Of a stretch of DNA of 63,855 nucleotides, positions 2,985-57,367 are shown one piece after another. The DNA is from a virus (lineage: Duplodnaviria > Caudoviricetes). Each line of letters opens with the position of its first letter. Position 1 is the stretch's first letter. The stretch lies in IMG/VR virus record IMGVR_UViG_3300022698_000087, positions 1 to 63,855 of that record; one strand, given 5' to 3'. The notes under the pieces are model-generated. The model was not told the DNA's origin. It ran no database searches and saw nothing but the letters and a program-made list of their open reading frames with translations. A program made the translations under genes and the position numbers.

Positions 2985-3013
2985 AGTATACCACAAGTAT
3001 ACAACAGATGCAA
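2985..3013 (-). promoter_or_regulatory. Promoter TTGCAT-N17-TATACT
   Basis: Same architecture as promoters at 6926 and 8149. Confidence 0.8.
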
Positions 3014-5841: not shown

Positions 5842-6274
5842 TTAGTCCGTGCTCTCTCGGAGAATCACAACCAAGCAATTCTCCCTTCAGGTTTTCCAAG
5901 GCCTCCTCAATTGGTATGAGAAGGGTCAAGGCCATATCTCGCGTCCACTCATAAGTGTACGCCGTGACGTTGCTTCGCTTTCTATGGTAGGAGCTGGTCA
6001 AGTGACCAAGCTTCCTAATGGCCTCTAGGGCCTGTGCCTGTCTCTTGGCACCTATTCGATCAAACTTGTCCATCAGTGACTCTTCAGACCCATCTGTTCC
6101 TTCGCACTGTGATGGAGTCACAAGCGTAGGCTGCTGCGGCACATCGACGTCTGCCGGTGCCTCCTGGGCCTTTTTGCTGAAGTCAACCATGGACCATTTG
6201 CCACATCCAGATTCACTTCCTGTACAGTCATCAGTGTAGTGGCCACATGATAGACATTTGGTTGCAATGCTCAT
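5828..6274 (-). CDS. Hypothetical protein
   Basis: Coupled ORF with N-terminal CxxC. Confidence 0.6.
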   Translation of the reverse strand: MSIATKCLSCGHYTDDCTGSESGCGKWSMVDFSKKAQEAPADVDVPQQPTLVTPSQCEGTDGSEESLMDKFDRIGAKRQAQALEAIRKLGHLTSSYHRKRSNVTAYTYEWTRDMALTLLIPIEEALENLKGELLGCDSPREHGLIEEN

Positions 6275-6474
6275 AGCTCTCTCCAGTTGATGATTCCTTC
6301 GCCCGCCAAGGCTTCCCGAATGTCTTCGTCATCATGGCTAGACCCAGGAAGACTGATGGTTGTTGTTTCTTCGTAACCTGCCGCATAGGTGACTTCCAGT
6401 GTCACTTCGTGGTGCATCCCTGCGGCCATCTGCCGATCATAATCGGCGTCTGCTTGTCTGTCGTCATCCACCAT
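6271..6474 (-). CDS. Small acidic hypothetical protein, first gene after the ncRNA region
   Basis: AGGAGAG SD. Confidence 0.6.
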   Translation of the reverse strand: MVDDDRQADADYDRQMAAGMHHEVTLEVTYAAGYEETTTISLPGSSHDDEDIREALAGEGIINWREL

Positions 6475-6495
6475 TTCTCTCTCCTGTTCTCTGAC

Positions 6496-6722
6496 CTACT
6501 GTAAAGTCGTGGGATGATCCAAACTGGTTTGGTCCATGGACCTTTCCAGTTTGGACTATCGGCCTATCCCGTATGGCCGGTCACGGGGTTTGACTCTTGG
6601 TCCTTGACCCATGACAATTATCGATTGCTGCCCCCTTTACTCTCCAGCTCCGAAGAGCTTTGTAGGCGTGGACAGTCTCTAGTTGACGCCTCGTTGTTCG
6701 GTCTGAGAACCTACAGTAAAAG
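6496..6722 (-). ncRNA. Putative structured ncRNA (~225 nt)
   Basis: Closing helix UACUGUAG/UUACAGUA, AGCUC-UUCG-GAGCU hairpin, UCCAAACUGG/CCAGUUUGGA helix, CGGCC hairpin whose loop GGGAU matches downstream AUCCC. Confidence 0.55.
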
Positions 6723-6723
6723 C

Positions 6724-6882
6724 TGGCTCCGGAAGGTAACGATCCTTCATCTTCCTAGCCTCATGCGTGACACTGACTGGCAATCAATGTCACGATCCCT
6801 GCCAGATCAAAGAAAGCTTAGCCATACTTTCAAAGACTTTGGGGCAAGAGGCTAGGCCGCATTGCCATAATGCTACGGAGCC
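6724..6882 (-). ncRNA. tRNA-like RNA with anticodon loop replaced by ~85-nt structured insert
   Basis: Acceptor GGCUCCG/CGGAGCC+A, U8A9, D-arm GCAU-UAUGGCA-AUGC, extended stem CCUAGCCUC/GAGGCUAGG, T-arm GAAGG-AUCGUUA-CCUUC. Confidence 0.75.
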
Positions 6883-6892
6883 GTTAATGTCA

Positions 6893-6904
6893 TTTTCAAA
6901 GAGC
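6893..6904 (-). promoter_or_regulatory. boxA-like antitermination element GCTCTTTGAAAA
   Basis: Resembles rrn leader boxA (GCTCTTTAACAA); lies between promoter and tRNA-like RNA. Confidence 0.6.
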
Positions 6905-6925
6905 TTTGTTCCTCACTACACCTAA

Positions 6926-6954
6926 AGTATACACGATATTTTCTTTAGATGCAA
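6926..6954 (-). promoter_or_regulatory. Promoter TTGCAT-N17-TATACT driving the ncRNA locus
   Basis: Near-consensus hexamers with 17-bp spacer. Confidence 0.85.
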
Positions 6955-6979
6955 GTGAAAACTTTGAGATTCACAACTT

Positions 6980-7216
6980 TCAGTTATCGGACTGAAGATC
7001 CTGAAGCTCCTCGGTTGTTTTTGCTCCAGGCTCATATACGAATAGGTATTGCTTCAGGTGGTCAAGATCTCGATAGGTATGGGTCACTTCATTGTGTCCC
7101 ACATGATCGTTCGTGATCCGAAGTTGATTGGTCCCCGCTACTTCGTAGATGATGTATCCCCACTGGCCCACCATCCATCGAACCTCATGTAGTGCCATGG
7201 CCTGTACGTTTCTCAT
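6980..7216 (-). CDS. Hypothetical protein
   Basis: Coupled ORF. Confidence 0.6.
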   Translation of the reverse strand: MRNVQAMALHEVRWMVGQWGYIIYEVAGTNQLRITNDHVGHNEVTHTYRDLDHLKQYLFVYEPGAKTTEELQDLQSDN

Positions 7217-8148: not shown

Positions 8149-8177
8149 AGTATACTACATAGATTAAATCTATGCAA
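8149..8177 (-). promoter_or_regulatory. Promoter TTGCAT-N17-TATACT
   Basis: Near-consensus, 17-bp spacer. Confidence 0.85.
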
Positions 8178-16664: not shown

Positions 16665-17040
16665 GAAACCTTTCTAGGTTCGACCTGTTTACATTTATCA
16701 GGTATCCGTATTTGTCGATGTGAGATGTCATCCGTCGAACTATTGTCGGCCACCCATGCGTTTCTCCATGTGCATCCAAATCAAGGGCGTTTATTATATC
16801 AATGACGTCGGAATAGGCTGTCTTGGTCAAATCAATGGAGAAGCACTCTGGCATGGTGCAGGGTTGACGTTTGGTGAATACAGGCCGGTTTCTGTCATCA
16901 AGGCTGCAGCGTCCTCCCTGAAGGAACACACAGTCTTCACATGTAAACAGAGTCTTTTGGTTCTGTTTTCTTATCGCTGCTCGTATGGCTAATCGTATTA
17001 GCCTCGAAGTATCATCACACTTTTCAGATTCAGCCCCCAA
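16657..17040 (-). CDS. Cys-containing hypothetical protein
   Basis: Coupled ORF. Confidence 0.55.
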   Translation of the reverse strand: MGAESEKCDDTSRLIRLAIRAAIRKQNQKTLFTCEDCVFLQGGRCSLDDRNRPVFTKRQPCTMPECFSIDLTKTAYSDVIDIINALDLDAHGETHGWPTIVRRMTSHIDKYGYLINVNRSNLERFHG

Positions 17041-19729: not shown

Positions 19730-21202
19730 TTATGATCCAAGTATATCTGTTTCTGCGTCATATGTCAATAACCATTTTCGGATTTTTCCATCGACAACCA
19801 CAGATGCATTGTCGAACTTGGTCCGAAGGGATTCAATGATATCGATATCCTTGGTATTATCGGCCACAATATCGATATATCGAACACTCTGGGTCTGTCC
19901 GGCCCGGTGATTTCGGTCTTCGCTTTGATGGCGTTCTTTCATCTTGAAGCTGTTCGAGTAATAGATAGTTGTCCTGGCCTCGTTCAAGGTGTGACCTTCA
20001 CCCATACTATCAGGCGTTGCCACAATGAACTGAACATTCTCGACAGGTTCAGTCTTGAATCTGTATTTGTTGTCCTCTCGCTTCTCCTCATCTATCGATC
20101 CATCCCACCGAACTGCCTTATCTCCAAGCATTTCGCAGATGAGATCAATGTCCTTGATGAACCTAGCCCAGATGATTGCTTTGTGTGGAAGATCCTGCGT
20201 GATCTCATTGAGCATCTTGAGTCGAGGGTTGTCCTTCTCAATCATGATGCATTTGTCCTCTTCGCCGGTGGGAAGATATCCGCAGGCTACTTGCTGAAGC
20301 CTAAGCAGCCTTGTGATGGCTAGAGGAGTGAAGATCATCTCTCCGTCTACCTCTGCCATGAATTCCTCCTCAAGCTCTCTGTAGATCTTCCACTGCTTGG
20401 CAGTCATCTCGAAGCCCGCATAGGAGTAGAGTTTGGGGGGAAGGTCAAGAACATCTTCCTTCAGGACACGTGACGACATAGAGCTTACCAGTTGAGTAAG
20501 AAGTTCCATGTTCTTATATCCGACCAGCACATCGTACTCGCGGTCTTGAGCCCCGTTGTACCCCTTCTTCCACTCACCAAAGAAGGTCTTGAAGCACTGG
20601 AAACTACCAAGTCCGTACTCGGTCTCAGACCAGAACTTCTTGTTCAGGAATCGGAACTGAGTGTAGACATCGAACGGAGTATTGGTGATGGGCGTCCCAC
20701 ACAACGTTCGCTTGTATTTTGCATAGTCACCAGATGCCAACACGGTTCGTGTCACCTTGGCCGAGGGGGTCTTAATTCGGTTCGATTCATCGGCGATGTA
20801 GAGGCAACGATGCTTCGACAGAAACTTCCGAGCCAACTTCTTACCAGCCTCCGTCTTAATTCCTGGGTATGACATCGCCAAGATCGGAAGTTTGTTAGTG
20901 GTGAAGAGGATCTCCCATTCCTTCTGATGCTTCTTGGTTTTGGCTTTCTTTGTATGAAACGCTACAGCCTCATAGTCTAGTGACAAGTGGTCCGGGATCT
21001 CGTATCTGACCCAGTTGGTGTGAAGCCCGGAGGGGGCGAGGATGAATAGGGCGTCTATCTCTCCGGCCGCATGAAGCTTCTCGGCGGTTGCAAGGCCGAG
21101 CCACGTCTTGCCAGTACCCTGTTCCCAATGAATGGCTCGAACAGCATCCAAGCCGTGCTCATTAAGCTCTTTTAATTGATGACTGAATGGTTTTGTCTTC
21201 AT
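19730..21202 (-). CDS. SNF2-family helicase
   Basis: EQGTGKT, DESN, GTPI, RLQQ, QSEDRNHRAGQ. Confidence 0.9.
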   Translation of the reverse strand: MKTKPFSHQLKELNEHGLDAVRAIHWEQGTGKTWLGLATAEKLHAAGEIDALFILAPSGLHTNWVRYEIPDHLSLDYEAVAFHTKKAKTKKHQKEWEILFTTNKLPILAMSYPGIKTEAGKKLARKFLSKHRCLYIADESNRIKTPSAKVTRTVLASGDYAKYKRTLCGTPITNTPFDVYTQFRFLNKKFWSETEYGLGSFQCFKTFFGEWKKGYNGAQDREYDVLVGYKNMELLTQLVSSMSSRVLKEDVLDLPPKLYSYAGFEMTAKQWKIYRELEEEFMAEVDGEMIFTPLAITRLLRLQQVACGYLPTGEEDKCIMIEKDNPRLKMLNEITQDLPHKAIIWARFIKDIDLICEMLGDKAVRWDGSIDEEKREDNKYRFKTEPVENVQFIVATPDSMGEGHTLNEARTTIYYSNSFKMKERHQSEDRNHRAGQTQSVRYIDIVADNTKDIDIIESLRTKFDNASVVVDGKIRKWLLTYDAETDILGS

Positions 21203-24344: not shown

Positions 24345-24895
24345 TTATCTAGTGCTGATGCGATCCAATTAACAGCACCACCCTCGAAGAATACATAGTC
24401 GAGGTGATTCCAAGGACGTGGCACCAATATGGCCGCTCCTCCAGCCTTTGACCAACGATAAACATTATCACTATTATCATCAATCAAAAGATCGTGGAAG
24501 CCGTGGGCAAACTCTTCCTTCGGAATGTGAGTGGGCACTATTCGGTGACGCAGCTCAGGGACATTGTCCGTCACCCACTTGGCTTTTCCGGTGTACGACC
24601 CGTCATTGTCCATAGGCTTTGTGAGAAGCCGCACATCTTCGGGCCTGAATCGATCCCACATCACCTGTAGGATCTCTTTCCCATCCACCATCCAAGGCAG
24701 GTTTGCCCAGAAGGCTGCGTCGCAATGCTCGCTTGCTTCTTTGTAGCTGGTGTTCGCTAGTGGAAAGAAGTCAAAACAACGTCCCCATGGCCACTGCTTG
24801 AGACCGCCATATGGGATGTCCATGGCTTTACATATTCCAGTGACGAAGTCTGCAAGGACTCCATCACAGTCGAGATTGATTCCGAAGTCTTGCAT
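24284..24895 (-). CDS. HAD-family 5'(3')-deoxyribonucleotidase
   Basis: DCDGVLADF, FW.NLPW, LT.P, K..W, LLIDD, PWN. Confidence 0.88.
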   Translation of the reverse strand: MQDFGINLDCDGVLADFVTGICKAMDIPYGGLKQWPWGRCFDFFPLANTSYKEASEHCDAAFWANLPWMVDGKEILQVMWDRFRPEDVRLLTKPMDNDGSYTGKAKWVTDNVPELRHRIVPTHIPKEEFAHGFHDLLIDDNSDNVYRWSKAGGAAILVPRPWNHLDYVFFEGGAVNWIASALDKWIGIVDYPALNMKGSACQG

Positions 24896-26064
24896 TAGTC
24901 GTCATCTCCAATAGAGTGGAAGTTACTGCACTTACAGATTCTGATACCTTCCTTGTGAGATGTGCATCTATCAGAATAGAGACAATTCAGACACAGGGGC
25001 CCAATGCATACGCTTGCCTTCACACATGTTTGGCATGAACCACTGCTTCCCTCCGCATCTTTATCGAGAGCCCACTGGGGACACGTGCCTTCTCCAGGAA
25101 TGAATTGTCCGGCGTTGACCCTCAAAGCTCGGTCGCTGTAGTACTTTTGCTCCAGGGTTAAGCCGCGATCACCATGTTCTACCATGTCTGGAACCACTTC
25201 GTCGGCTTCGTATGCTGCACAACCATGGGTAGGCCCAGGAGGATCGTATGGGCATGGCAGATCCGGGCCGCGTCTCTTGCACATGTCACACAAGTTGAAT
25301 TGATTCTTAGGATACTCAAAACTAGGCTCGATCACTTTCTTGTCGGTGATGCGAATAGGCCTGTCGTCTACCCAGTTGCCCATCACTATGCTGTCCACCA
25401 ACACCGACATGCAGGATATGAACTTGGTCAAGTGACATAGACCACTATCAGGGTCTATGTCTGTGCCTGAAAGGAAGTCAGTGATGTGGCGAATACCTGC
25501 GTCGAAATATACGCTGCATCGTACGCCTGCGTCTCGGTAGTTGTGGCGTCCGTACTTGCGTCCACCTTCCATCATTCCTATAGCGGCTTCCAGAATAGCC
25601 CTCCAAGGAAGGACATGCCATGGCACCTTTGTCATGTCGATCTTCGGAACCGTGAACGTTGGCACGCAGTTATCACTGTGAACGAATGGCTCTACACATT
25701 TCGGATATGCCTGAACCACCTTTTCCGCCAGCTCATTCAGCGTCTTGACATGTAGCCCAGTGCTGCTTCTTCTGTCATGGTCGAGCCGACCTTCCATCAT
25801 AAGCAATCGCATAAACGCCACGTTTGCCATTGCGTCAGTGATGGTAGAAACATCATCATTACCTTCCCAGAAGGTAATCATTTGGCCGATGGCAATACTT
25901 CCCATCTCACAAATGGAGCTGTGGCCATCATTCATGAGACAGTCTAACCTTTGATTTTGAATGCTCTCAGCCATAAGTGCCGCACAATGTGAACTAAAGC
26001 AGCTCATTGGAACCTTCTTGATTCCAAGGGCATCTTTGGGATTTGTTGCCTTACTTTCGTGCAT
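24895..26064 (-). CDS. DUF5664 (dATP/dGTP diphosphohydrolase-like) protein, duplicated domain plus Cys-rich tail
   Basis: TNPKD.LG..KVP; EGGRKYGRHNYR...RH...G.DIDPDSGLCHL...DDRP. Confidence 0.8.
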   Translation of the reverse strand: MHESKATNPKDALGIKKVPMSCFSSHCAALMAESIQNQRLDCLMNDGHSSICEMGSIAIGQMITFWEGNDDVSTITDAMANVAFMRLLMMEGRLDHDRRSSTGLHVKTLNELAEKVVQAYPKCVEPFVHSDNCVPTFTVPKIDMTKVPWHVLPWRAILEAAIGMMEGGRKYGRHNYRDAGVRCSVYFDAGIRHITDFLSGTDIDPDSGLCHLTKFISCMSVLVDSIVMGNWVDDRPIRITDKKVIEPSFEYPKNQFNLCDMCKRRGPDLPCPYDPPGPTHGCAAYEADEVVPDMVEHGDRGLTLEQKYYSDRALRVNAGQFIPGEGTCPQWALDKDAEGSSGSCQTCVKASVCIGPLCLNCLYSDRCTSHKEGIRICKCSNFHSIGDDD

Positions 26065-26236
26065 CAAGTTTCTCCCGTCGTGATTTCTCTGTGAGGATCT
26101 TCCGGCCAAGAATCAGTTGTGCTTTTCGTGCGGCCTTGAGCCCTAATGTTGCCATGAAGTCTCGATAAACTCTTTCCGCCGCAGCTTCAATCTGCGTATT
26201 GTCAACGTGTGGCATTTCTCTCTCCAGGACGTTGGT

Positions 26237-31239: not shown

Positions 31240-33716
31240 TACGTGATTACCTCTTTAACTGCCACCATGCACTTTGATTGTCCAAGTGCATTATAGTGTA
31301 TCAAAACAATGTCATCTGTGTCAAGCCTAACTTCGGATAAAAACTCGATTCTGTTGATATCATCCACGGCGATATCGTATGGCCATGCAGCATCAACTGT
31401 AATCTGCTCCTCGGCGGTACTGTTCTCTACGCTGGCGGTAATCTCTCGATCAAGGACTGTGCCGTCTACGAGATGAACTCGAATATACTTCTTAGATTCT
31501 CGTTGATATGCGTTAAGTGCATATCCAACATTGTCCATAATCAACGCCGTACTTCCTATGGATAGATCTTGGTTTGGAAGTAGATCCTTCGAGAATGTGG
31601 GAATGTAAAATGTCACCCACCTACCCTTCAGGCTGTGAAGAAGTTGTCTAAGCTCCCAAAGCTCTTGGCGGCTCTTGGTGACGAAGCCCTTAACACTGTT
31701 TCTTTTTGAGTGACCCCATAGATCATACTGTGAAAACACGCCCGTCGTATTGTCTCTGGTGTACACTCTAGTCTCGAACACTTCCTCCAGAGATCCATCA
31801 ACTACATTAGGTCCGTCCAGCAAGACCTTTCCGCCAAACGTATTCCATGCACCTGTGTCTGCAATGTCATTCTCCGTGGCTAGGGTGTATACCCTAAGCT
31901 TCACTTGCTGATCGTTATTCAGTGATTTCACTGATGGAGTGGTTGGCTCTACGTATGCAGCCATGAGAGGCATCACTTGCGTGCCAATAGCGTGTGAGTT
32001 AGTCACCGCAGAATCAAGTTCGATGGTGGTAGAGGTCATCGACACAATTTCTCTTGTGTCATACGTATACTTATCCGTTAGGACAACAACGTATCCACCT
32101 ACGTAGAAGTTGGCGTAGCTTGTTGTATTTACATTGATTGTTGTTGTCGTACCAGCAACCGCCGCTGAGGTCAAGAATGACGGCTCATGCCATGCCGGGA
32201 CAGCAACGATCTTTGATTGCCTATCATACAGGAACAGCTCCATCCGTCTGCGGTCTTCCGAGATGCTCATCTCGAACATCCCTCTAGGGTACTGTCTTCC
32301 TGATGTTCTTTGCTCCGTCCCATTGATCTTTTCGATGATCTTCGTATCAAACTGTATGTGCTCCCTGAGCGGAGACTCCGGTCGAATCGGAAGAAGCACA
32401 ATCCTAGTACCTGTGATTGTGATGGTGTACTCTTCTCCAGTTGACAGCGTAAGAGTGTAGGTCGAATCAATTCCGAATCCACCAGAGAGACCGACGTTTA
32501 CAATGAATTGAAGTCCGCTCTGAGAATCGATATTAAACGGAGTTGCAGGGACGCCTGTCACAGTGACACCTGTTGCTAGATCTGACGTAATACTGGATAC
32601 CGTTATCGCATCATTCCTATCTGCGTTGTACAGCTCACAGTTTATCGTCGTCGCACTGATGATGTTGCCGAGAGCCTGAACCGTTCTGGGTATAAGGTGA
32701 GCGTGCTCAAACCATTGGGCATCAATGGCATCGAACTCACCACCAGTATGTTCGTTTTGATCCATTGCGGTTTGATCGATATGCTCATCTGACCCAAGCC
32801 CAGGGATCTCGGCCATCTCTTGTGGTCTTGGGGCCGATCCTACTGAGATTCCTCCTATGGCTATGCCCGCATCCCATCCAGTACCATCAGCTGTATCAGG
32901 ATCATCCATCAATGTCCCAACGTTGTAGATCGAACTGGAGTCTGGAGCTATAGTCATAACTCCTTCACCAGAGAATGTGATTACAGGTCTGTAGGTGACA
33001 TTGGGGGCGACGATCATACTGCCAGTTCCCGTGAATGTAACCGCCACATACTCCGTCGAACCGCCTCCTGGAGGATCTACCGGGGGGTCATCACCTGTGT
33101 AGGATGGACTACTTACCTCAGTGAGGGTTGCCCCACCCATCTCATCAGTCCCATCTGTTCCAAGAATGTGGTGAGCTTGAAGATTGGCATACTGAATATC
33201 CTGTGGATTGGTTCCAGCTGCCAATGATGCGATCTCTGCCCCGGATAGAGCAATGTCCCACATCGCAAAGTGAGCAAGCTGACCCGTGTAGTAAACTCCA
33301 GGAGAGCTACTTCCATATCTGCATCCAAGGCTCACATGTGTTGTAGATCCAGCTGCCTGTGACGTTGTGGTCTGAGCGTAAGATGCACCGTCTAGGTACA
33401 CCTCTCTATTGTTATCACTTGTAAACACCACAACAGCACAATGCCAAGTGCTGTTCTGAGGATATGGTGACGCACAGAAGGTGTATGCCCAACCTGAATT
33501 GTATGAGGCAACCGCGATTGGATAATTAGGACTCTGATCTCCACGCAGCTGACATTGGTTCTGCTTATTACTGCCATCGTCGTCAGAGACCATGATGGCA
33601 TTGCTGCTGCTTTGTGAAACATCAGATGTCTTAAACCACACCAGTATCGTCTTTGGATAGGCGTTTACTGGTGTGGTTCTATATGCGTAATTTGATCCGC
33701 TAAGAACTAAGGACAT
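31239..33716 (-). CDS. Distal tail-like virion protein with N-terminal LamG/ConA domain
   Basis: WH..V.....YLDG...G.LA..A.W..ALS..EI (LamG); C-terminal EQR, L.G....F..P, RLD.D. Confidence 0.75.
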   Translation of the reverse strand: MSLVLSGSNYAYRTTPVNAYPKTILVWFKTSDVSQSSSNAIMVSDDDGSNKQNQCQLRGDQSPNYPIAVASYNSGWAYTFCASPYPQNSTWHCAVVVFTSDNNREVYLDGASYAQTTTSQAAGSTTHVSLGCRYGSSSPGVYYTGQLAHFAMWDIALSGAEIASLAAGTNPQDIQYANLQAHHILGTDGTDEMGGATLTEVSSPSYTGDDPPVDPPGGGSTEYVAVTFTGTGSMIVAPNVTYRPVITFSGEGVMTIAPDSSSIYNVGTLMDDPDTADGTGWDAGIAIGGISVGSAPRPQEMAEIPGLGSDEHIDQTAMDQNEHTGGEFDAIDAQWFEHAHLIPRTVQALGNIISATTINCELYNADRNDAITVSSITSDLATGVTVTGVPATPFNIDSQSGLQFIVNVGLSGGFGIDSTYTLTLSTGEEYTITITGTRIVLLPIRPESPLREHIQFDTKIIEKINGTEQRTSGRQYPRGMFEMSISEDRRRMELFLYDRQSKIVAVPAWHEPSFLTSAAVAGTTTTINVNTTSYANFYVGGYVVVLTDKYTYDTREIVSMTSTTIELDSAVTNSHAIGTQVMPLMAAYVEPTTPSVKSLNNDQQVKLRVYTLATENDIADTGAWNTFGGKVLLDGPNVVDGSLEEVFETRVYTRDNTTGVFSQYDLWGHSKRNSVKGFVTKSRQELWELRQLLHSLKGRWVTFYIPTFSKDLLPNQDLSIGSTALIMDNVGYALNAYQRESKKYIRVHLVDGTVLDREITASVENSTAEEQITVDAAWPYDIAVDDINRIEFLSEVRLDTDDIVLIHYNALGQSKCMVAVKEVIT

Positions 33717-35134: not shown

Positions 35135-36877
35135 TTACTCTTCCTTTATCGCGAAGAAGTAGTTTCTGTTTGTCTTGTTGCAGTTAGAGAAGGCTCTGTA
35201 CCTTGTGGTCCCAATGATGATTCTGCTCTCAGATGTCACGATCCCTGCCGGATTGAACTTAAATACTCCACGCATGTTTCCATACATCTTACTATCATAG
35301 TAGTTTATGACCGTACACGGAATCAACGTGAATTCCCCATTCGGCCCCTTTAGGGCGTCTTGATTGGAGGATATCGTGACATCATCTGTGAATATTGACG
35401 CCCACGTCTGATTATCATTTCCATACCAATTGTTTGGAGCAGCCTGTGCTGAGTAGTCACATCCTGCTCCTGGTTGGATCTTACCCGCAAGATTGAATGT
35501 TGTAGGAATACCGCTGCTTAGATACCAGTTCTGGATAATCTTCCAGCTCCCATCGGGAGAACGCAAATGTCCCGGCCCGACGTTTGAGCTTGATGCTCCT
35601 GGATGATCCATTCCAGCGTAATCAACACCAGAGTAATCATAAGGATATCCACTTACGAGATTACCAACCAACAGCTGTGAGTAGGCGTATTCACTATCAG
35701 TTAGATAGGCATCTAACTCTCCAAGATACATGTTCGGATATACTGAACCAACCTTGAAGGCACCTACGATTCTTGTATCCTGCACCGATATCCAGTAGCT
35801 GATGGATGCGGGGACAGTGCCTCCCGATAGTGGAACATAGCACGCTTTCGGACTGGAACTTCCAGGCTGCTCATCCCACGGCGTAGAAAGAGAATTGAAC
35901 CCCGTGAACCCGCACAGCTCGTACAGGTAAGCGTCGTCAGGAGATGTCACCTTAAAACCACGCCACCCCAAGTACTGGTCGGATGTAGTATTGTGGATCA
36001 TCAAGTACTTGGTTTCGTAAGTGTCGTCATCCCACGCCATAGTGAGCGTCAGACCAGATCCAGTTCCACCGGATGTAGCAGCTGCATTACTAGGGGTGGT
36101 GCTGTATTCACCTGCGGTGATAATAGTGACGGCCGTAGGTACACCAGCACTTACCGTATCAATTCTAACCGTGCAAGGATCTGTGTATGTCCCACCCACA
36201 ACTGTCACTATGTCATTCTCTGTGTATCCAGTTCCAGCCGCAGAGATCACAGCAGCTGTTGCCTCCTGCTCTTCATAATCCACCAATACCTCCCACGCCG
36301 TATCAGTGTATGTCACCGTGAACTTCGCCCCGGTGCCAGAGCCGCTGGAGGTATTCTGGCTGACTGGATTACTGGCCTGCGACGTATACACACCTGAATC
36401 TGAGATATGCACCCCAGTAATGATGCCGGTCTCTGAGCTAAAGGTCAGATCGACCGTCAGGCTCGTGCCAGATCCATCGGTAGTCGTAGCCACAGGATTA
36501 CTGGGTGTTGCCGAACAGATCCCTGGGTTATTGACCTGAAGCCCAGTGACGACTCCGCTGGATTCCGATGTCACCTCTAGCTCCGGTGTGACACTGTACG
36601 TACCTGAATCAGGATAGATCTTGTCTCCAACCGAATAACCAGATCCGCCAGCGTTAACCGCAGCCACAGTCACAATGTCACCAGAACTAATTGAGATCAC
36701 TTCAAGCTCGGGCTCGTGATATTTGGTGCCACTTGCCAACGTTATTGTATCACCGAGGGCATAGTCGGTTCCTCCGTCATACACTGTAACAGCAGATATA
36801 TGGTCATCCTGAACCAAATTGCTGAGCTGATCCAGCATGTCCTGATAGTCCGTAGCTGTTCCCTTGAACCAAGCCAT
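35135..36877 (-). CDS. Virion structural protein with three inserted beta-rich 'GG.GY..GD' domains
   Basis: MAW.KGTA start; three repeat units. Confidence 0.75.
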   Translation of the reverse strand: MAWFKGTATDYQDMLDQLSNLVQDDHISAVTVYDGGTDYALGDTITLASGTKYHEPELEVISISSGDIVTVAAVNAGGSGYSVGDKIYPDSGTYSVTPELEVTSESSGVVTGLQVNNPGICSATPSNPVATTTDGSGTSLTVDLTFSSETGIITGVHISDSGVYTSQASNPVSQNTSSGSGTGAKFTVTYTDTAWEVLVDYEEQEATAAVISAAGTGYTENDIVTVVGGTYTDPCTVRIDTVSAGVPTAVTIITAGEYSTTPSNAAATSGGTGSGLTLTMAWDDDTYETKYLMIHNTTSDQYLGWRGFKVTSPDDAYLYELCGFTGFNSLSTPWDEQPGSSSPKACYVPLSGGTVPASISYWISVQDTRIVGAFKVGSVYPNMYLGELDAYLTDSEYAYSQLLVGNLVSGYPYDYSGVDYAGMDHPGASSSNVGPGHLRSPDGSWKIIQNWYLSSGIPTTFNLAGKIQPGAGCDYSAQAAPNNWYGNDNQTWASIFTDDVTISSNQDALKGPNGEFTLIPCTVINYYDSKMYGNMRGVFKFNPAGIVTSESRIIIGTTRYRAFSNCNKTNRNYFFAIKEE

Positions 36878-56124: not shown

Positions 56125-56152
56125 AGTATAATGCACACTTGGAAAGATGCAA
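56125..56152 (-). promoter_or_regulatory. Promoter TTGCAT-N16-TATACT
   Basis: Same hexamers as other early promoters. Confidence 0.65.
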
Positions 56153-57027: not shown

Positions 57028-57367
57028 TACTTAAGGCCCCCGCTCATAAAGTTTTCCCATTGAATCCGCAAAGCCTTATGGTATTGGCGTTTTGTGAGTC
57101 TTTCACCACATCGGCCACAGTAGTATCTTGATAGGCCAAATCTAGTAGTCCTTAACCCTGGCCGATGATATAGAAATAGGCAAATTAGTCGTTTCATCGG
57201 TGGGCCCCCTAGTTGTTCTGCAGAACGCGGATAGTGTCCGCGTATGACTTTTCACAGGCTTTACTTGTTTCGTTGGCCCAACGTCCACAGGAAACCGCAA
57301 GCCATATAAGGAATAGAAACCCCATTCCAACGATTGCCATCTTTGTTATCATTCTTGCGTTGAACAT
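57027..57367 (-). CDS. Two tiny ORFs (57209-57367, TM-containing; 57027-57197, CxxC)
   Basis: Hand-translated; below ORF-track cutoff; first has GAAAGGG SD and a promoter-like TATACT at 57408-57413. Confidence 0.5.

Follow-up and report, generated by a model that had tools for sequence, protein, structure and literature searches.

An anticodon-less, tRNA-shaped phage RNA family with lineage-specific modules: a candidate natural tRNA scaffold

The phage genome held in IMG/VR as IMGVR_UViG_3300022698_000087 (Duplodnaviria; Caudoviricetes) encodes on its minus strand an RNA of 159 nucleotides (nt) that has the acceptor, D and T arms of a transfer RNA (tRNA) and carries an 85-nt structured module in place of the anticodon loop. 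The record is a complete virus record of 63,855 base pairs (bp) that ends with direct terminal repeats, and we refer to this whole stretch as the window. With three homologues, the window RNA makes up a new family of four members, and phage T5 gave the first glimpse of RNAs of this kind. We consider that its gene produces a stable, non-decoding RNA, a natural "tRNA scaffold" that would display an exchangeable module specific to each lineage, and from comparison of the sequences we give this reading an even chance.

A tRNA body with a module in place of the anticodon loop

An earlier note on this DNA, made from the sequence alone, had proposed at 6724-6954 an anticodon-less tRNA mimic behind its own promoter and a boxA element. 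Every element that it described there was found in its place in the sequence, and the cloverleaf was reproduced by folding. The unconstrained minimum-free-energy fold returned the cloverleaf together with a branched insert at -68.7 kcal/mol (z -5.18), and none of 200 shuffled sequences folded as well. In addition to the parts listed in Table 1, the RNA has U8 and A9, and its module contains the motif GAUC-UGGCAGG-GAUC. It is the only tRNA-like gene in its genome.

A strict cloverleaf-plus-insert descriptor (acceptor stem of 7 bp, D stem of 4 bp, anticodon stem of at least 7 bp, insert of 25-220 nt, and a T arm with a 5-bp stem and a 7-nt loop) gave two matches in 908,386 bases, namely the window RNA and a 140-nt stretch at the related phage locus L062. 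A looser descriptor applied to 3.26 Mb matched 23 real sites versus 8-11 in shuffled DNA, and a relaxed one 264 versus 181. Because the looser descriptors match shuffled DNA too, the cloverleaf shape alone is weak evidence; it is the homologues and their covariation that make the RNA more than a product of chance. Among 19 matches of the looser descriptor outside the family that were examined, 18 had no tRNA-like T loop, and the remaining one, at L080, overlaps an ordinary tRNA.

Compensatory changes among four diverged members

Homologues were sought at loci anchored on the phage primase (9 viral loci, the best 80 of 481 metagenome loci and 70 genome-contig loci), with covariance model R1 built from the window RNA and L062 and model R2 built from four members. 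Three further members were found (Table 1), at L062, L118 and L123, the last having the same sequence as L189. No member was present in the 70 genome-contig loci of primase relatives, and blastn of the RNA region against 50,697 phage records gave no match. The exact 33-nt 5' part of the RNA was absent from IMG/VR, and a 24-nt word of the L062/L118 module was found solely in L062's own contig. A 17-nt word of the window module had one match, in an unrelated open reading frame (ORF), which we attribute to chance.

The four members were aligned (alignment A3), and the resulting counts are indicative and not a formal test. Of the cells belonging to the 22 core pairs, 96.6% are paired, and both partners have changed in 11 of these pairs. 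In 500 shuffles, not one reached any of five covariation measures, and when partners were slid by 1-3 columns, pairing fell to 32-46%. The acceptor, anticodon and T stems vary with compensation, and the D arm with its flanks (UAGCAUU..G...AUGCG.CC) is invariant. The equivalent of the tertiary pair G19:C56 is G-C, A-U, G-C and G.U in the four members, and that of 54:58 is U-A in three and A-U in one. These observations, which a selected L-shaped tRNA body would predict, indicate that selection keeps the three arms of the body (acceptor, D and T) together with the elbow contacts between the D and T loops, and the proposal of a genuine, conserved, anticodon-less tRNA-shaped RNA held up when covariation was examined.

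The same D arm, letter for letter, occurs in genuine phage tRNAs (an 83-nt tRNA-Asn(GUU) at L200 and a tRNA with anticodon CUA at L195), so the RNA body is tRNA-derived. The D-arm pattern was found at 18 loci in all, comprising two known family members, some genuine tRNAs and otherwise chance matches. Weaker possible examples of the same design lie in more distant primase relatives, at L107 17869-18021 (153 nt, 18 bits), L105 3718-3839 (122 nt, 21 bits) and L150 14690-14764 (a 4-nt loop). Two other matches were discarded: one of R2 at window 57114-57249 (16 bits), whose acceptor strands do not pair convincingly, and one of R1 at L027 7303-7409, which spans two adjacent tRNAs.

A tRNA-derived body, absence from some close relatives and the single acceptor mismatch in L118 would fit a tRNA pseudogene in decay, into which a random or mobile sequence had inserted. 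However, compensatory changes maintain all stems across the four diverged copies, the tertiary pairs of the elbow are kept, L062 and L118 align without gaps, and the inserts are highly structured. We disfavour decay and regard it as extremely unlikely.

Table 1. Features of the window RNA and its locus, with the homologues of the RNA. Positions are those of the window unless another locus is named.
Feature	Position	Strand	Details and evidence
tRNA-shaped RNA, 159 nt	6724..6882	-	fold z -5.18; covariation in four homologues; R1 179.7 bits, R2 114.5 bits
Acceptor stem GGCUCCG/CGGAGCC, 7 bp	6876-6882 with 6725-6731	-	sequence and fold
Discriminator A73	6724	-	no CCA encoded
D arm, stem GCAU/AUGC, loop UAUGGCA	6859-6873	-	sequence and fold
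T arm, stem GAAGG/CCUUC (5 bp), loop AUCGUUA	6732-6748	-	sequence and fold
Extended "anticodon" stem, 9 bp, CCUAGCCUC/GAGGCUAGG	6848..6856 with 6754-6762	-	first 5-6 pairs co-vary in the family
Module in place of the anticodon loop, 85 nt	6763..6847	-	U.U and UGC/GCA, H1, CUGGCA, H2
Hairpin H1, GAAAGU[AUGGCUAA]GCUUUC	6812-6831	-	in module
Upstream CUGGCA	6800-6805	-	complementary to UGCCAG of the H2 loop
Hairpin H2, 10 bp, GUGACAUUGA/UCAGUGUCAC	6767-6793	-	loop holds UGCCAG at 6777-6782
Homologue in L062	16841-16980		141 bits
Homologue in L118	6654-6793		103 bits with R1
Homologue in L123	17298-17436		51 bits with R1, 123 bits with R2
Promoter TTGCAT-17 nt-TATACT, then TTA	6926..6954	-	read from sequence; recurrence; kept in relatives
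boxA-like leader element GCUCUUUGAAAA	6893..6904	-	inside 5' leader of about 37 nt
Element 2, conserved block CGAACAACGAGGCGUCAACUA..CUGUCCACGCCUACAA	6659..6700	-	79-90% identical to L061/L074 and L123; long invariant run in three-way alignment
First protein-coding gene of the unit, 67 amino acids	6271..6474	-	no family match
rtcB, 428 amino acids	3251..4537	-	Pfam RtcB, E 3.5e-97; PHROG 1075; same predicted transcription unit as the RNA

Comparison with standard RNA classes

The RNA is neither a tRNA, a transfer-messenger RNA (tmRNA), a YrlA RNA, a ribozyme nor a convincing intron-bearing tRNA. ARAGORN found no tRNA and no tmRNA in the whole window, and Rfam 15 gave no match over the same stretch at gathering thresholds, in agreement with the proposal that the RNA is not one of those already catalogued. 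At E <= 10 over 6500-7200, Rfam returned only spurious microRNA and IMES matches on single hairpins. The RNA has the cloverleaf of a tRNA with acceptor, D and T arms and elbow contacts, but where a tRNA has a 5-bp stem and a 7-nt anticodon loop there is a stem of 9 bp plus 3 bp and then 85 nt.

Against a tmRNA, pair 3:70 is C-G or G-C in all four members, so the G3.U70 pair is missing as previously claimed, and neither ARAGORN with its -m option nor Rfam gave a match. The module does contain a short frame, AUG GCU AAG ... UGA, that might be taken for a tmRNA-like tag, but the homologues do not keep it. No YrlA or other Y RNA was matched in Rfam at E <= 10 within 6500-7200, and the self-cleaving ribozymes and group I introns of Rfam gave no match. 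A protein family scan covered 77 of the 94 candidate ORFs (E <= 0.01 or <= 1e-4), the other 17 being mostly short or overlapping. It contained no Ro60/TROVE match, consistent with the earlier remark that no Ro60 gene is visible, and no CCA-adding enzyme, RNA ligase or splicing endonuclease family.

We also considered whether the RNA is an intron-bearing tRNA from which an endonuclease would remove the insert before the RtcB protein of the phage joins the halves into a working tRNA. In archaea and eukaryotes, RtcB ligates the halves of spliced tRNAs, and the phage encodes it 2.2 kb downstream. With its intron option, ARAGORN called the window RNA a tRNA-Ser(UGA) with an 86-nt intron at position 32 and the L123 homologue a tRNA-Pro(UGG). 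Conserved "introns" are reported for the tRNAs of Lak phages (bioRxiv 10.1101/356790). However, the anticodon calls disagree among the homologues: L118 is called Pro(CGG) only at a lowered threshold, and L062 gives nothing consistent. The supposed intron lies at position 32 and not at 37/38, the window call has A in place of U33, and the stem runs on for 8-9 unbroken pairs past the expected start of the loop, with the extra pairs co-varying. There is no bulge-helix-bulge motif, no splicing endonuclease family among the ORFs scanned and no group I intron or ribozyme match, and L123 keeps the RNA yet lost rtcB. Because the calls disagree, the position is non-canonical, U33 is missing and the extra stem pairs co-vary, we rejected this explanation as very unlikely.

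A structured module that differs among lineages

The window, the L062/L118 pair and L123 have modules of unrelated sequence. Every member nevertheless has a lengthened anticodon stem that opens into two hairpins, with 9, 8, 8 and 5 pairs before the first interruption in the four members. L062 and L118 are close enough for the module to be compared directly. Their coding DNA is 68-80% identical, and the RNA is 81% identical without gaps; its 28 differences over 140 positions are divided between module (13 of 69) and body (15 of 71). The module of this pair contains an invariant run of 31 nt spanning the junction and one loop, and all three substitutions in hairpin H2 keep the pairing. These figures argue that the module, which in L062 and L118 is as conserved as the tRNA body, is under selection.

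The earlier note had suggested a kissing loop or pseudoknot within the window module. The complementarity of CUGGCA and UGCCAG is indeed there, with a chance of random origin of about 4% by rough estimate, but this 6-nt pairing is not conserved as such in the homologues. In the window module, pairing could join the two hairpin loops (UGGC with GCCA) or a loop and the junction (CUGGCA with UGCCAG), and both module loops of L062 and L118 carry the self-complementary GUAC. Given this loop complementarity, the module could fold compactly or link copies loop-to-loop. As mimics of an anticodon loop the module loops were rejected, since only the window H2 loop UUGCCAG fits the pattern Y-U-NNN-R-N and the CCGUACA loops of L062 and L118 do not. 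Part of the window module (GGCAGGGAUCGUGACAU) has a 17-nt exact, same-sense repeat elsewhere in the genome, at 35233-35253(-) versus 6787-6807(-). The repeat sits inside a 580-amino-acid ORF at 35135-36877 (within-genome E 6e-4) and may be due to chance.

No specific coupling with rtcB or other genes

The statement that rtcB follows downstream on the same strand with no obvious terminator was confirmed: the gene starts 2187 nt downstream of the RNA, and no terminator-like site was found on the minus strand between them. The functional link with rtcB that had been suggested found no support when co-occurrence was checked. We judged seven close lineages, defined by a primase at least 57% identical and enough downstream sequence. 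The RNA is present in four of them (window, L062, L118 and L123) and absent from three (L061 = L074, L072, and L064 = L075/L076). The rtcB gene is present in six of the seven. Full-length copies occur in the window, L062, L118, L061/L074, L072, L063 and L064/L076, and so in the RNA-less lineages L061/L074, L072 and L064/L076. In L123, which has the RNA, what is left of rtcB is a C-terminal remnant ORF of 70 amino acids (20776-20988), whose match to the window RtcB is confined to residues 360-428; this lineage has apparently lost the gene. Among 58 loci anchored on rtcB in other phages, no member of the RNA family was present. Because rtcB is kept without the RNA and is reduced in the RNA-bearing L123, the two are not specifically coupled.

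Other candidate partners fared no better. Genes g7213 and g5828 have homologues in the RNA-less L072 too, and a ligase-like ORF occurs in L062, L118, L061 and L072 and is absent from the window and L123. This 296-amino-acid ORF, which follows the tRNA cluster, matches PF01068 with E 0.002, below the curated cut-off, and lies at L062 17314-18204, L118 7140-7952, L061 19094-19936 and L072 10016-10873.

At 24 of the 58 phage rtcB loci (L003-L060), at least one tRNA gene lies within 6 kb, often directly adjacent to rtcB. The tRNAs that recur there are Pro(UGG), Gln(UUG) and Asn(GUU), and one further locus, L045, has a tmRNA gene. Phage tRNA-Asn(GUU) genes of 83-88 nt (L003 5351-5436, L005 5028-5114, L046 3829-3913 and 3921-4008, L200 1446-1528) have a long variable arm, a feature not usual in tRNA-Asn, and several of them are near rtcB.

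A special case of the tRNA scaffold reading is that the RNA acts as a decoy, its tRNA-like body occupying an anticodon nuclease or another tRNA-sensing defence, which could not cleave it for want of an anticodon loop. The determinants of the L-shape are intact and the anticodon loop is indeed missing, and the phage group invests in tRNA repair, as seen from rtcB in most close lineages and from the tRNA genes near phage rtcB. Phage tRNAs are reported to counter tRNA-cleaving defences (PMC11555353). However, no such RNA decoy was found in the literature outside subscription journals, the RNA and rtcB are uncoupled, and the anticodon-loop pattern is matched by the window H2 loop alone. We regard a decoy function as rather improbable.

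A promoter, a boxA-like leader and a slot for RNA cassettes

The RNA gene lies in a 505-nt gap on the minus strand between ORFs 6980-7216 and 6271-6474, in which promoter, boxA-like element and RNA follow one another and are succeeded by about 250 nt of non-coding sequence. The promoter claimed for the RNA in the earlier note is present. Its -35 hexamer TTGCAT agrees with TTGACA at only 3 of 6 positions, and a simple sigma-70 promoter scan did not list it. The call is supported by recurrence and conservation. The TTGC-N-TATACT motif occurs four times in the window, always on the minus, or coding, strand, where 0.2 copies were expected and none of 100 shuffles reached four, and the promoter is kept upstream of the homologous leader in L061, L062, L072 and L118. 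The promoter-like copies TTGCAT-N16/17-TATACT lie at 2985-3013, 6926-6954, 8149-8177 and 56125-56152, all (-), and probably represent the phage's own early or middle promoter type.

The boxA-like element was likewise found as described. The leader sequence GCTCTTTGAAA matches the consensus GYTCTTTAANA at 10 of 11 positions, with C4 present and G for A at position 8; this consensus is gamma-proteobacterial (bioRxiv 10.1101/091223). C4 is critical in boxA, and the boxA of rrn operons reads UGCUCUUUA (PMC2724277). The element is kept in L061, L062, L118, L072 and L123, with or without an RNA gene after it, and it may keep RNA polymerase from terminating across the untranslated stretch of about 450 nt.

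Promoter and boxA-like leader are common to all close relatives, and what comes next differs. In L072 nothing intervenes, and the homologue of the 67-amino-acid ORF stands directly 3' of promoter and leader. L061/L074 have a terminator-like hairpin and the conserved element 2. The window has the tRNA-like RNA and element 2, and L123 has both of these followed by a second tRNA-shaped RNA of 72 nt with a 5-nt "anticodon" loop. L062/L118 have a long hairpin RNA, the tRNA-like RNA, tRNA-Ile(GAU) and tRNA-Gln(UUG). Because the content after the shared leader varies in this way among relatives, the site is a slot that takes different RNA cassettes. In L118, the genes for true tRNA-Ile and tRNA-Gln encode no CCA, just as the tRNA-like RNA does not, in keeping with a shared maturation route.

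Element 2 is probably an RNA element separate from the tRNA-like RNA within the same untranslated leader. It extends over window 6627-6712 (-), L061 15284-15385 and L123 17446-17598 and consists of an invariant block of about 42 nt forming a hairpin, a variable hairpin and a conserved GGAGAGUAAAGGGGCAGC. Between the window and L123 it is 90% identical, exceeding the tRNA-like RNA itself. The long hairpin RNA between leader and tRNA-like RNA in L118 (6478-6575) and L062 (about 16745-16835) is a near-perfect hairpin (z -7.1) whose 16-bp stem closes off about 50 nt, and by eye the two copies are near-identical, far above their surroundings. The short-loop tRNA-shaped RNAs at L123 17604-17675 (5-nt loop) and L150 14690-14764 (4-nt loop) have good acceptor, D and T arms with a canonical T loop; they are not called by default ARAGORN, and one of them folds with z -4.0. 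A trailer motif, (G)CUUUUACUGUAGG, stands after each RNA unit, at window 6709-6722 and 6494-6507 (-) and L123 17437-17450 and 17676-17690. It is also found 3' of the terminator-like hairpin of L061 and may be a processing or termination signal. At L107 13438-13512, a tRNA has an 8-nt anticodon loop, for which ARAGORN gives the 4-base anticodon UAAU; it is possibly a quadruplet-reading or otherwise unusual tRNA.

This arrangement also allows the tRNA-like body to be read as processing punctuation, that is, as a signal for cleavage by RNase P and at the 3' end that separates the leader from downstream mRNA or neighbouring RNAs and carries a functionless insert, the anticodon arm being at liberty to shorten or lengthen. 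The RNA lies in the untranslated leader between promoter and first ORF, the insert sequences differ among lineages, and the 5- and 4-nt anticodon loops in the relatives L123 and L150 show that the arm is dispensable in this phage group. However, the insert folds very stably, and in L062/L118 it is as conserved as the body, with an invariant run that includes loops and junction, whereas neutral filler would diverge. Moreover, L072 has the same operon without such an element. We consider punctuation unlikely, while leaving it a real share of the probability.

Among the remaining genes of the window are those for a family A DNA polymerase, helicases, a primase, a tape-measure protein and a terminase. 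Among named phages, the primase is closest to those of Pseudomonas siphophages, e.g. PaMx11 and Ab18, at about 50% identity. The ORF at 24895-26109 (-) encodes a 404-amino-acid protein with an N-terminal dATP/dGTP diphosphohydrolase domain (PF18909, E 1.2e-20), a domain linked to nucleotide-pool editing in phages with modified DNA.

The proposed tRNA scaffold

In the reading that we prefer, host tRNA-maturation enzymes would excise the RNA from the untranslated leader, with RNase P cutting at the 5' end and trimming and CCA addition following at the 3' end. We infer CCA addition because neither the RNA nor the true tRNA genes beside the L118 copy encode a CCA. The tRNA body would supply processing, folding and stability, and the module would be the working part, most likely binding a host or phage protein. 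The whole would be a tRNA look-alike unusable in translation.

Several points weigh against this interpretation. The family comprises only four sequences, and L118 has one U.C mismatch in its acceptor stem. Selection on the module is argued from one sequence pair, the statistics of which are weak, as 28 of 500 shuffles reach the pairing observed in the L062/L118 module and hairpin H1 of L062 has two non-standard pairs. No phage gene in the flanks compared tracks the presence of the RNA. The RNA is accessory, since the relatives L061/L074 and L072 manage without it. Finally, the tRNA body would likewise stay conserved in a tRNA-like element retained purely to direct processing.

Precedents in other phages

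The claim that the RNA represents a new class was too strong, because the same build is already found in phage T5 and tRNAs with inserts have been reported from Lak phages. RNA1 (NC_005859 30501-30644) and RNA2 (32959-33083) of T5 are annotated as "tRNA-like stable RNA with unknown functions". Our comparison of folds indicates that, like the window RNA, they have a tRNA body with acceptor, D arm and canonical T arm and an expanded, structured anticodon arm without a 7-nt loop. The T5 RNAs are 125-144 nt long and lie among tRNA genes in a large cluster, whereas the window RNA stands in an operon leader behind a boxA-like element, and RNA1 has in addition a long variable arm, unlike the window RNA. 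There is no detectable similarity of sequence or profile: R2 run against the T5 region at E <= 0.05 matched true tRNAs only, and neither RNA1 nor RNA2.

Phage T4 encodes the species 1 and 2 RNAs (rnaC and rnaD), small stable RNAs from its tRNA region with roles given as unknown (PMC3014915, PMC9697503). rnaC ends in a canonical T arm like the window RNA, but rnaC and rnaD lack a complete cloverleaf with a D arm, and R1 scores just 6.5 bits on rnaC. The Lak megaphages have "tRNAs with enigmatic introns", in which oversized, conserved inserts could not be classified in Rfam, as reported by Devoto et al. (bioRxiv 10.1101/356790). By that description, the Lak tRNAs keep an assignable anticodon and their inserts were read as introns, whereas the window family has no consistent anticodon. 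Given the T5 and Lak precedents, we regard the window RNA and its homologues as a new family of an already glimpsed kind.

Among cellular RNAs, tmRNA is similar in having tRNA-like ends and a long helix in place of the anticodon arm that leads to a structured domain, possibly with a pseudoknot. The window RNA differs in its full D stem, in its module of just 85 nt and in lacking G3.U70. Bacterial YrlA RNAs often lie near rtcB, and the ends of a YrlA RNA form its Ro-binding stem. This topology is reversed relative to the window RNA, whose ends form the acceptor stem. What the YrlA-type Y RNAs do share with it is a tRNA-like module in a non-decoding RNA (Chen et al. 2014, PMC4201824). Engineered tRNA scaffolds (the Ponchon/Dardel approach; PMC3753655) have the same design, with an RNA grafted on the anticodon stem for processing and stability in the cell. 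They are artificial constructs in E. coli, whereas the window RNA would be a natural counterpart, the processing of which is predicted. In the literature outside subscription journals, we found no paper on the window RNA family, on a natural phage tRNA scaffold or on a function for such RNAs.

Implications

For decades, the annotations of T4 and T5 have included non-decoding tRNA-shaped RNAs with no function assigned. The locus described here adds a small family in which the body and its elbow are under selection and the module is exchangeable between lineages, and in which sister phages with and without the gene can be compared. The attractive idea of the RNA and RtcB as one system has been removed as unsupported. 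More broadly, and as a speculation that we consider improbable at present, unrelated phage groups might use the tRNA body as a general expression platform: host tRNA enzymes would excise any module grafted on the anticodon stem, add CCA and make it stable, and the modules would be exchangeable effectors that bind host or phage proteins, e.g. traps for tRNA-directed defence enzymes. If the module does work as proposed, phages would use host tRNA maturation to make stable effector RNAs, a natural version of the laboratory "tRNA scaffold", and this would also offer a way into what the RNAs of T5 and T4 do.

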